Shown here piece by piece: positions 1,638-6,062 of a DNA stretch of 16,120 nucleotides; within the stretch, counting starts at the first letter, position 1; every line of letters starts with the position of its first letter. The stretch is taken from contig CAYNQI010000006.1 in NCBI GenBank assembly GCA_964399335.1, positions 34,005 to 50,124 of the forward strand, read 5' to 3'. The translations under genes were made by a program, and so were the position numbers. Source of the DNA: an uncultured Thermoplasmata archaeon. Lineage in GTDB: Archaea > Thermoplasmatota > Thermoplasmata > Halarchaeoplasmatales > Halarchaeoplasmataceae. The notes beneath the pieces were generated by a model. It did not search any database and had not been told where the DNA came from. It saw nothing but the letters and a program-made list of their open reading frames with translations.

Positions 1638-1685
1638 CATCTCACCGTATTGACATCCGAAGAACAGATTTAACTATTCACAGCA

Positions 1686-1705
1686 GGGAGATCAGTGAAA
1701 GTGAA
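1686..1705 (-). promoter_or_regulatory. Putative DNA-damage-responsive upstream element (TTCACTTTCAC-N4-CTCCC) for the microprotein gene
   Basis: Plus strand GGGAG-atca-GTGAAAGTGAA, 16/20 identical to 4617-4636. Core resembles the Halobacterium UV motif TTTCACTTTCA and contains the Sulfolobus ANTTTC element. Confidence 0.65.
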
Positions 1706-1714
1706 CGATAAAGA

Positions 1715-3853
1715 TCAAGCCCGTTTCATCTCTCTTTCAACCTGCTTCTCATCATATCCAAAAGGAGACAACATCTCATCAACCACCCGGTAAAAGTATT
1801 TTGAATAAAAATCTCTATCATAATGTTCCACATCACTGCCTTCGATCTTGACTTTCTCCCGGTAATGTTTACTTTTCTGATCAGTGACTATATATCTTAC
1901 GTATTCTCCGGGATGGACAGGGATATCTTCATCTTGGTATTGAAGTAGAGCGGCTTTAGTTTCTATAAGATTGCTGTACTCCTCTGCCTTCTTGGAAACT
2001 GTCTTTGAGAAGTACAGTTCTTTAAAATCGACTTCTTCCCTTTTCAATTGTATGAAATCTTTTTTTATTAAATCCATTGCTTCTTCAACTTTTTCTTCCA
2101 ATTCATCTAGGTTCCGAGCATCTTTCATGCTTTCCAACACTTTCCTCTGGACTTTTTTAAAGAATTTCGGAGTATCTTTACGCCTAGCATGTATACCTCG
2201 CATCTCGGTTTCTCCCTCTAAAACTCCATAGTACCGGTTAGCCACTCCCAAACCATCCGATTTACTGGGAAGAAAAACGATCCATCTATAAACCCCTTCT
2301 TTTTCGAGTAAAATACTTGTTTCATTTTCCACATCTTCGATCAATACATCTAATTTCTCTCTCTCACCCTTCAACCAAAGAGAATCTACTATCCCATGGA
2401 TCAACTTGTAGCCCATCTCTTGAGCTATATCCGCGGCTGTTATCAGTATATCTCTTCCGTAAGCGGTAACACTTTCATGAACTTCTATATTACTGAATCT
2501 AGCCTTTTTATAACCCGTATAACCAAAACACGTAACTAACAACCACTTCAGCGTATCGGCCCGTTTAGAAAAGCGTTCCCCCTTCATACTTTTGTATCTC
2601 TGCCGACGCTGGATCAGTGGTGAAACTACCTTCGGTATGAGTCCACGGCGTCGATCACATACTTTATAACCCAACTCCGGAACCTTATGAAACTCCCCAC
2701 AGTCACATCCAATGGTCTCAGGTGACAAATTGTACTTATCTATTATAGATGGATACATACTGGCGAAATCTAATTTAAGGACGTTGAAATGGACCCCCAT
2801 CTCAGGTTCAAAAATATGTCCACCTCTATCAGCTTTCAACAACTGCTCGGCACTTTTAAACCTTTCAGATATATTCCTTTTCCACGGTACTAGGTAACCA
2901 TCATCCATGGCACATTCAAGTTCCATGGCATCGATGGCGGTTCCGGGGCTCCTCCTGGCGAGTTTCTGGAGAGGGATCTTAGAAAGTCTAGATATCTCTA
3001 TGAGCCCATCAAGACCTCCCTCACGATACAGGAATGAATTCTGCACATCGATATGGACCCTACCTTTCAAGTGGTGAGAAGGGGGTTTGTAGATGACTCT
3101 ACCGTAGGAAACATGGGATGATCCTTCCTTACGCGCATGAATAGACCGTTCCCGACCTAGTTTCAAATCTTCGTTATTCAACCTAGCCCGATGAAATAAA
3201 TAAGGTATCAAAAAGGGATCTCCGTTGGAAGTCAATATCACGTCCGGATCTTTGATCTCTATCTCCCTGTTGAGTTCTTTGATCATCTCTTTTTCACTCC
3301 CAACCATAACTGAGTCTCCCAACTTTATTGAAGATATCTGGTCATCCATGGCCGGGATACCTTTCGTTTCGAAATCCACTGAAAGTGATGCCTCCCGAAG
3401 AGATGGAAGAGAATAATTCACATCGGTGTCTTTCTCTAACTCTATCCATCCATCGTTCTTATCGACCAGTGAAAAAGGTCGTATGCCCTTTTCTATAAGG
3501 TACCTCTGTCCCAACGGGATATCCACATTATAGAACTCATAATTATCATATCCTTCAAAAAAATGCAGAGCATCCGCTTGTTTTCTTGGATCGAAGACAT
3601 GACCTGGAGATATCTCTAAAACTTCCTTTTCTACTTTATCATATATGGTGGTTTTTTTAGAAACGTAACTCGTTTCGAAGTCCATATCTTGATAGAATTC
3701 TTCGATCTCTCCGTAGTTTCCGTCCGAAGCTTCGACGTAAAAAAGTGGGTTATAATCTTCGAAGACCTTGTAGGTTCTATCAATAGTCTTCATCCAGAGA
3801 ACCATCTTTTTCCTTTTCAGGTCCGGATAAATATCCAATATCCATCCTTTCAT
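1715..3853 (-). CDS. polB2: Family B DNA polymerase, archaeal PolB2 (Dpo2) group
   Basis: Motif A DFASMYPSII, motif B KWLLVTCFGY, motif C HGIVDS (PolB2-type, in place of YGDTDS), degenerate exonuclease motifs, and linkage to iRadA and the small helical gene. Likely start is the ATG at 3853 (MKGWILDIY), not the track's TTG at 3871. Confidence 0.9.
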   Translation of the reverse strand: MKGWILDIYPDLKRKKMVLWMKTIDRTYKVFEDYNPLFYVEASDGNYGEIEEFYQDMDFETSYVSKKTTIYDKVEKEVLEISPGHVFDPRKQADALHFFEGYDNYEFYNVDIPLGQRYLIEKGIRPFSLVDKNDGWIELEKDTDVNYSLPSLREASLSVDFETKGIPAMDDQISSIKLGDSVMVGSEKEMIKELNREIEIKDPDVILTSNGDPFLIPYLFHRARLNNEDLKLGRERSIHARKEGSSHVSYGRVIYKPPSHHLKGRVHIDVQNSFLYREGGLDGLIEISRLSKIPLQKLARRSPGTAIDAMELECAMDDGYLVPWKRNISERFKSAEQLLKADRGGHIFEPEMGVHFNVLKLDFASMYPSIIDKYNLSPETIGCDCGEFHKVPELGYKVCDRRRGLIPKVVSPLIQRRQRYKSMKGERFSKRADTLKWLLVTCFGYTGYKKARFSNIEVHESVTAYGRDILITAADIAQEMGYKLIHGIVDSLWLKGEREKLDVLIEDVENETSILLEKEGVYRWIVFLPSKSDGLGVANRYYGVLEGETEMRGIHARRKDTPKFFKKVQRKVLESMKDARNLDELEEKVEEAMDLIKKDFIQLKREEVDFKELYFSKTVSKKAEEYSNLIETKAALLQYQDEDIPVHPGEYVRYIVTDQKSKHYREKVKIEGSDVEHYDRDFYSKYFYRVVDEMLSPFGYDEKQVEREMKRA

Positions 3854-4094
3854 CTTCCACCTTCCTTTCAAGTCTAGCTAAGGTCTTTTGATGTTCGAGT
3901 AATATCGAGATAAATAATGATTCCATAGGATCTGGATTGGCTTGATATTGGGCGGCGGAACCGTGTTTCTTTGCGTTGAGCATGAGTTCTTCGAAATACT
4001 TCCTTTCCTCTTTTCTAAGAGCCCTTTTGAACTTCGACCACTCTGAGATTATTTTATCGAGTTCCTCCCTGTAAGTTGGCACACTTTTTCCCAT
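3780..4094 (-). CDS. Small alpha-helical PolB2-associated protein (arCOG07300-like)
   Basis: MGKSVPTYREELDKIISEWSKFKRALRKEERKYFEELM pattern, position between iRadA and polB2, and GGAGGTGA SD 5 nt before the ATG at 4094. Confidence 0.8.
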   Translation of the reverse strand: MGKSVPTYREELDKIISEWSKFKRALRKEERKYFEELMLNAKKHGSAAQYQANPDPMESLFISILLEHQKTLARLERKVEDERMDIGYLSGPEKEKDGSLDEDY

Positions 4095-5829: not shown

Positions 5830-6062
5830 GAGCAACATGACGGCCATAGCGGTGGGGTAACACCTGGTCTCATCCCGAACCCAGAAGTTAAGCCCACCCG
5901 CGTTCTCTGTTGTACTGTGGTGCGCGAGCCCACGGGAAGCCTAGGTCCTTCGCGGACCCCTGGATCGATGGCTTAGGTTAGGAGCCTGGCTCTCTTCGGG
6001 GAGTAAGGTAAACCTAACTGTTTGAAGGCTACTTTCGACCCTTGGCCCGCTGTCAGTTGCTC
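5830..6062 (+). rRNA. rrf: 5S rRNA gene with a ~100-nt insertion (~5941-6040) and an extended helix I
   Basis: Canonical archaeal 5S elements: GACGGCCATAGCGG, CCCGAAC, GAAGTTAAGCCC, GTACTG...GCGAG...GGGAA. The helix I 3' strand GCTGTCAGTTGCTC lies at 6049-6062, about 100 nt later than normal. Exact mature ends are uncertain. Confidence 0.93.

Follow-up and report, generated by a model that had tools for sequence, protein, structure and literature searches.

A two-part upstream element likely forms a dedicated promoter for a zinc-finger microprotein gene behind polB2 in a halophilic Thermoplasmata archaeon

The 16,120-nt stretch of DNA analyzed here (hereafter the window) stems from the metagenome-assembled genome of an uncultured archaeon in a halophilic Thermoplasmata lineage near Ca. 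Saliniplasma and holds two copies of a promoter-like box, one heading an operon that ends in a gene for a family B DNA polymerase and the other beginning 9 nt beyond the stop codon of that polymerase gene (TGA, 1717-1715 on the minus strand), in front of a reading frame of only 31 codons. The question raised by this locus is whether the second copy (box 2) serves the short reading frame as a promoter of its own, and to which signal such a promoter would respond. We consider it likely that positions 1705-1686 of the minus strand are a working copy of a two-part upstream element which, together with 1679-1668, makes up a dedicated promoter of the microprotein gene, and that a factor acting there would raise transcription upon DNA damage or replication stress.

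In this part of the window, the minus strand encodes every gene (Table 1), and the order of the iRadA, PPB2 and PolB2 genes agrees with the “mutasome” gene order described previously (PMC11791011). The PPB2-like ORF overlaps the likely PolB2 start by ~74 nt in another frame (window 3780-3853), and the TTG start at 3871 is probably an over-extension of PolB2. A search of the window against Rfam revealed a 5S rRNA (5836-5955, plus strand) in a region where the protein genes all lie on the minus strand, and matched no other family.

Table 1 Features around the two box copies, in window coordinates.
Feature	Position	Strand	Remark
Box 1, TTCACTTTCAC-CATC-CTCCC	4636-4617	-	Promoter box of the iRadA-PPB2-PolB2 operon
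TATA-like TTATAC of box 1	4602-4597	-	24 nt past the core
iRadA	4572-4054	-	Short RadA/Rad51-like protein, 172 aa; weak Rad51 Pfam match
PPB2-like	4094-3780	-	Small helical protein (MGKSVPTYREEL...), ~104 aa; middle operon gene
PolB2	3853-1715	-	Family B DNA polymerase; likely ATG 3853 (MKGWILDIYP), ORF list runs to TTG 3871
Box 2 core, TTCACTTTCAC	1705-1695	-	Contains ACTTTCAC; kept in congeners
Box 2 C-rich half, CTCCC	1690-1686	-	After TGAT, 4 nt beyond the core
BRE-like purine-rich GAATAG, then TATA-like TTAAAT	1679-1668 (TTAAAT 1673-1668)	-	
Predicted transcription start region	1648-1641	-	Inferred from the usual archaeal TATA-start spacing
Shine-Dalgarno-like GGTGA	1646-1642	-	Overlaps the predicted start region
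Zinc-finger microprotein, MMSKECEACENEMVPTEGCWLCPVCGDSNCR (MMSKECEAC...CPVCGDSNCR)	1640-1545	-	31 aa; free-standing homolog of the NrdJ C-terminal zinc finger
T4 run	1530-1527	-	Downstream of the microprotein gene; candidate terminator
T6 run	1478-1473	-	With T4, first oligo-T terminator candidates after polB2, beyond the microprotein gene

The interval 1668-1705 comprises box 2 plus its TATA-like element. The two boxes are identical in 16 of 20 positions, with all four mismatches located in the spacer, and their placement is similar: the core of box 1 is found 54 nt from the iRadA ATG (4572), while in box 2 TTAAAT lies 22 nt past the A of TTTCA and the candidate start codons at 1640 and 1637 follow at 55 and 58 nt, respectively. 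This degree of identity and the distances, including the 9 nt to the polB2 stop and the 22 vs. 24 nt to the TATA-like elements, had been given in an initial annotation of the locus and were all reproduced when the minus strand was read. The GAATAG and TTAAAT sequences are present and conserved, with a spacing fitting that of at least 60 sister promoters, and the start site at this locus is a prediction. Archaeal transcription usually starts ~25-30 nt from the TATA element, which would place the start ~25-30 nt past TTAAAT, at about 1641-1648, and give a very short leader.

The box is rare in this genome. The 20-mer pattern TTCACTTTCAC-N4-CTCCC was matched twice in the window, compared to 0.01 matches expected from shuffles, and the whole 1.57-Mb assembly of 212 contigs holds no further copy. 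The 11-mer core TTCACTTTCAC occurs four times genome-wide, three of them before radA, the PolB2 operon and the microprotein gene, where the copy before the canonical radA (TTCACTTTCAC-CCAC-CTCCG) is positioned ~60 nt from the ATG (C3:24209 of this genome, G000). A scan by fixed rules, which required ACTTTCA[CT] with a C-rich tetramer no more than 10 nt away and a hexamer resembling TATA at +24 to +33, returned nine sites where 30 shuffles averaged 0.87: those of radA, the PolB2 operon, the microprotein gene, MCM, xseA (two sites, on duplicate contigs), an 86-aa ORF, an RNA-like contig end, and contig C115, the last probably arising by chance. The box is also present, though less strictly spaced, before an RPA-like gene with an OB fold and before a DUF763 gene. 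According to the initial annotation, the motif was expected to be enriched before repair genes, radA and nrdJ, as opposed to being frequent and randomly placed; occurring twice as the 20-mer and four times as the core in 1.57 Mb, it was indeed found concentrated before DNA repair and replication genes including radA. The expectation did not hold for nrdJ, as the box was looked for in the 200 nt before NrdJ in 17 relatives and was absent, and nrdJ was on these grounds rejected as a target; the nrdJ of this genome is located on a truncated 1.8-kb contig. NrdJ is UV-induced in Halobacterium. What the NrdJ promoters of the 17 relatives do have in common is another conserved sequence, ATCGGAATATTCTTAAC or AATAGGAAATTTCTTAACCCCC; it is located ~45 nt upstream of the ATG and may constitute a separate ribonucleotide reductase regulatory site.

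Further copies of the box were encountered in other surroundings. At a contig end (G000:C30:1-125), a GC-rich non-coding sequence that looks structured (GTGCTTGACGG...GAAAGTCAAGTCC...) is headed by a perfect box with TATA. An Rfam search with this sequence gave no match; the non-coding sequence is kept in the congener G003 (C92) but its box is not, and the site (C30:125) was dropped as a regulon member since it is absent from G003. A repeat of ~60 nt with a hairpin (CTTCCTAAATCTCTGATTTAGGTGGG) is found directly upstream of a box copy (TCAATCACACTTTCAC) at C1:31230-31361 and at the end of C12 (28000-28156), with a third, similar hairpin near C25:14931, and may be a small mobile element carrying the box. 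A near-match to the Halobacterium motif has been noted to precede a transposase gene in that organism (PMC2556686). The RPA promoter of this genome (G000:C23:4301-4345) contains a double box, ACTTTCAC-TTTTTTCAC, and its proximal part, TCCCTGCTAGAAATAGTTAAAT, is identical in 21 of 22 positions to the microprotein promoter of G003 and in 20 of 22 to that of the window (1690-1668), a likeness that could reflect either a shared BRE/TATA constraint or promoter copying.

The composition of the gene set bears on the signal to which the promoter would respond. With MCM and RPA, the set holds two core genes of replication, and its signal could come from replication or the cell cycle and not from damage. 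The same promoter would then bear a replication-linked, cell-cycle or growth element, and the microprotein would be expressed alongside replication; the induction of the Halobacterium motif genes other than radA, just a modest ~1.5-fold (PMC2556686), would be in line with this. We nonetheless hold such a signal to be unlikely, given that, of all targets, radA and the PolB2 translesion operon are conserved best, that PolB2 operons are reported to be damage-induced (PMC11791011), and that the Halobacterium motif genes respond to UV-B. A response to DNA damage or replication stress is hence the reading followed below.

Comparison with relatives defined the element as a core, (T)TCACTTTCAC, followed by a spacer of 3-4 nt and a C-rich block, CYCCC, and situated 26-31 nt upstream of TATA. 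Across the operon, radA, RPA and microprotein sets, the distance from the start of ACTTTCAC to TATA is 26-31 nt (29 nt for box 2), and the C-rich block is found ~11 nt after the start of ACTTTCAC in nearly all of these promoters within the family. Among PolB2 loci from 40 related genomes, ~20 orthologous operons from several families have the box in the same position, as (C)ACTTTCAC, a C-rich block and TTATAC. The PolB2 cluster of a genome from another family (G037) has two boxes, one before iRadA (~231) and one before the PPB2-PolB2 part (~1149), so that extra boxes in or beside the operon are not unique to the genus of the window. For RPA, the box was present in 21 of 21 family loci inspected, often as the double form described above, and for radA in each of the 19 close loci whose upstream sequence was long enough; these belong to halophilic Thermoplasmata (Ca. 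Saliniplasma, Ca. Natronoplasma and Ca. Haladaptatiplasma among them) and have the C-rich block at +11/12 and TATA at +25 to +27. In a broader set of 78 radA loci (Thermoplasmatota, Methanomassiliicoccales, Methanosarcina, Methanoperedens and Methanocella), ACWTTC[AG][CG] was found at most 150 nt upstream in 50, compared to 4 of 75 and 10 of 80 control windows, and in Methanomassiliicoccales and Methanomethylophilaceae the box before radA takes the form of tandem ACTTTCGG units.

This fixed placement also bears on the sign of the regulation. The box could in principle be the operator of a LexA-like repressor that is removed on damage, which would parallel the bacterial SOS control of imuA-imuB-dnaE2 and umuDC, and the C-rich block ends just ~10 nt upstream of the BRE-like stretch. 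Archaeal activators usually bind upstream of BRE and TATA, whereas the sites of repressors mostly overlap with BRE, TATA or the transcription start. In the present case the whole box is upstream of BRE and TATA, starting 26-31 nt before the latter, unlike the usual archaeal repressor sites, and it is asymmetric and not a palindromic operator; repression from the box thus appears improbable, and activation remains the preferred reading.

The short ORF behind box 2 is conserved as a protein. Its sole match in NCBIfam was PRK08665 (B12-dependent ribonucleotide reductase), covering positions 732-758 of 759, i.e. the last 27 residues (E 0.0045), and its cysteine pattern, CxxC-N9-10-C-xxC-xxC-N3-C at the extreme C-terminus, is as found in NrdJ tails. 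Between this genome and G003, dS is ~2 and dN/dS 0.06, and dN/dS is 0.04-0.14 for close pairs overall; the microprotein is under purifying selection. In an alignment of the polB2-microprotein spacer from four congeners, TTCACTTTCAC...CTCCC...TAGTTAAAT..TTCTT is kept, unlike the polB2 end and the leader; between these genomes dS is at least 1. Box 2 is identical in 20 of 20 positions in this genome and G003, its TATA is kept in G003 and in the congener G002, and a third congener (G001) has a degenerate copy, TTTACTTTCAT-ATAT-CCCC. As both the box and the ORF are conserved even though synonymous sites are saturated, both are concluded to be under selection, and the microprotein can be regarded as a real gene, as the initial annotation had proposed.

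The microprotein follows polB2 in the genus of the window only, and a profile built from the four copies of this genus was used to search 43 genomes of the family. The matches were of two kinds, free-standing ORFs of 29-51 aa in most genera, and the C-terminal ends of ORFs of ~1120-1150 aa with NrdJ-like N-termini. All 17 free-standing microproteins inspected, from eight genera, were preceded by the box, the C-rich block and TATA. Their settings, described for all but two of the eight genera, differ: behind PolB2 in the genus of the window, in four genera directly behind the stop of a glycerate-kinase-like gene (MOFRL, 442 aa), and in one genus at a site that has no co-oriented gene in the first 190 nt upstream or more and is followed by unrelated membrane-protein genes. 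At the glycerate-kinase ortholog of this genome the next gene is that of the RFC small subunit, and neither microprotein nor box is present there. The presence of the box whatever gene lies upstream, together with its absence at this locus, indicates that gene and box have moved together. It is thus strongly supported that the box belongs to the microprotein and not to polB2, and the dedicated promoter that the initial annotation had assigned to the microprotein is backed by the like arrangement at radA, the PolB2 operon, RPA, MCM and xseA, by the box at 17 of 17 homologs, and by a footprint fully conserved over 20 positions in the window and G003. In the copies behind the glycerate-kinase-like gene TATA is ~28 nt from the ATG, implying a leaderless mRNA, and those of another genus are preceded by a ~45-nt leader in which GAGGTGAT forms the Shine-Dalgarno sequence, so that one regulon member appears to be translated by different modes of initiation.

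Runs of at least four T were sought between the polB2 stop and the microprotein ATG and none was found, from which it follows that operon read-through probably adds to microprotein expression. Box 2 as a non-functional passenger copied along with a microprotein expressed only as fourth gene of the PolB2 operon, to which this lack of a T-run terminator, the GGTGA before the ATG and the confinement of the polB2-microprotein arrangement to one genus would lend themselves, is highly improbable, since the box is unchanged in G003 and its TATA kept, with synonymous sites being saturated, and copies in other genera retain it where the preceding gene is an unrelated metabolic one or where there is none.

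With box 2 taken as part of a dedicated, activated promoter, a mechanism can be proposed. The fixed spacing of 26-31 nt to TATA corresponds to a location of the box at about -60 to -38, upstream of BRE, where a sequence-specific factor would bind; given that known archaeal activator sites are located likewise, we infer that this factor may recruit or stabilise TBP and TFB. It would raise transcription after DNA damage or replication stress, a response suggested by analogy, as genes induced by UV-B in Halobacterium carry this core motif too (PMC2556686), and by the make-up of the regulon. The latter would include radA, iRadA-PPB2-PolB2, RPA, MCM, xseA and DUF763 in addition to the microprotein gene. 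Read-through from the operon would contribute further microprotein transcripts, with the GGTGA Shine-Dalgarno sequence presumably serving their translation. For the 31-codon ORF, which automatic annotation would miss, the box provides independent evidence of a real, separately controlled gene, and it offers a precise probe for pulling down the regulator.

A wider proposal, which we put forward tentatively and with some doubt, is that the box, ACTTTCAC-N3-CYCCC, is the element of an ancient damage regulon shared by Thermoplasmatota and Halobacteriota (Halobacteria, Methanosarcinales, Methanocellales, Methanomicrobiales and Methanomassiliicoccales), possibly with an Orc1/Cdc6 paralog as regulator, and that this regulon recruited a free ribonucleotide-reductase zinc finger in halophilic Thermoplasmata. 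If true, damage signalling would be tied to dNTP supply via a 31-aa protein and not via nrdJ transcription. The neighborhoods of polB2 are enriched in orc1/cdc6 genes (PMC11791011). Neither of the two Orc1/Cdc6 genes of this genome has the box upstream, and an autoregulated Orc1/Cdc6 was for this reason set aside as regulator, remaining a weak lead. The ORB-like repeats before cdc6-1 share with the box just a CTTTCAC or TTCCAC core and have a G-string, not a C-string. Upstream of cdc6-1 (C2:34683-34774), inverted ORB-like sequences, CCCCCCTACTTGGTGAAAGCAAGTGCG and GTTCCACATGAAATATAGGGGG, flank ~30 nt of A/T-rich DNA in what is probably a replication origin, and the box-bearing MCM gene is found on the same contig, ~8 kb from these elements.

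The closest known counterpart is TTTCACTTTCA, found before the UV-B-induced radA1, top6B, vng17 and vng280 of Halobacterium NRC-1, upstream of TATA and ~50 nt before the start codon (Boubriak et al. 2008, PMC2556686). The motif was also noted before radA of other haloarchaea and of Methanospirillum, and no regulator was identified (PMC2556686). GTTCACTTTCA from box 2 and ATTCACTTTCA from box 1 each match TTTCACTTTCA in 10 of 11 positions, and in both systems the core is located upstream of TATA, ~50-60 nt before the start codon, and heads radA as well as small ORFs of unknown function. In contrast to the Halobacterium motif as described (PMC2556686), a conserved C-rich block follows 3-4 nt past the core, the host belongs to another phylum (Thermoplasmatota), and the targets are the PolB2 mutasome operon, RPA, MCM, xseA and the free zinc-finger microprotein. 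We therefore view the locus as a new, well-supported instance of a known orphan euryarchaeal repair-promoter motif in an extended, two-part form. It adds that the motif of 2008 is part of a longer, two-part element of fixed position, that this element is kept before radA across at least two archaeal phyla, and that it heads a compact regulon in one lineage, comprising RadA, the PolB2 mutasome, RPA, MCM, ExoVII, DUF763 and the microprotein. In a full-text literature search the 2008 paper was the only one among archaeal papers to mention the motif, and searching with the literal sequence returned mostly primers and eukaryotic IRF/ISRE matches. A keyword search of the literature for a euryarchaeal damage-response regulator found none. 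To our knowledge, no regulator of this motif has been described in any organism, nor one of the archaeal DNA-damage response outside Sulfolobales.

For Sulfolobales, a DNA-damage-responsive ANTTTC element connected with Orc1-2 was reportedly described by Le et al. in 2017. The element, 5'-ANTTTC-3', is bound by Orc1-2 (Sun et al. 2018, PMC6061795) and lies 23-55 nt before the ATG in a damage regulon, the PolB2 (Dpo2) operon being among its members (PMC6061795). The ACTTTC within the core of the box fits ANTTTC; however, the 20-bp consensus of the Sulfolobales element, AATAGTTTCRGWDTACTCWS, is not matched, the sequence here being CACTTTCAC-N3-CYCCC, and the hexamer is positioned ~56-61 nt before the ATG, upstream of TATA.

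Two further comparisons concern the logic of the regulon and the origin of its smallest member. In bacteria, LexA SOS boxes head error-prone polymerase cassettes such as imuA-imuB-dnaE2 and umuDC, and as in the SOS system, one cis element joins a recombinase gene, a translesion polymerase operon and small accessory genes. The archaeal box differs in being unrelated in sequence, not palindromic and read by the archaeal transcription machinery, and, unlike an SOS operator, in lying upstream of the core promoter, which suggests activation. For NrdJ of the same family, the final 25-27 residues (CPxCG...EGCxxCPxCGxSxC) align with the microprotein, but in contrast to the NrdJ genes, which have no box, the microprotein is encoded by a free-standing gene of 29-51 aa with a repair-type promoter of its own.
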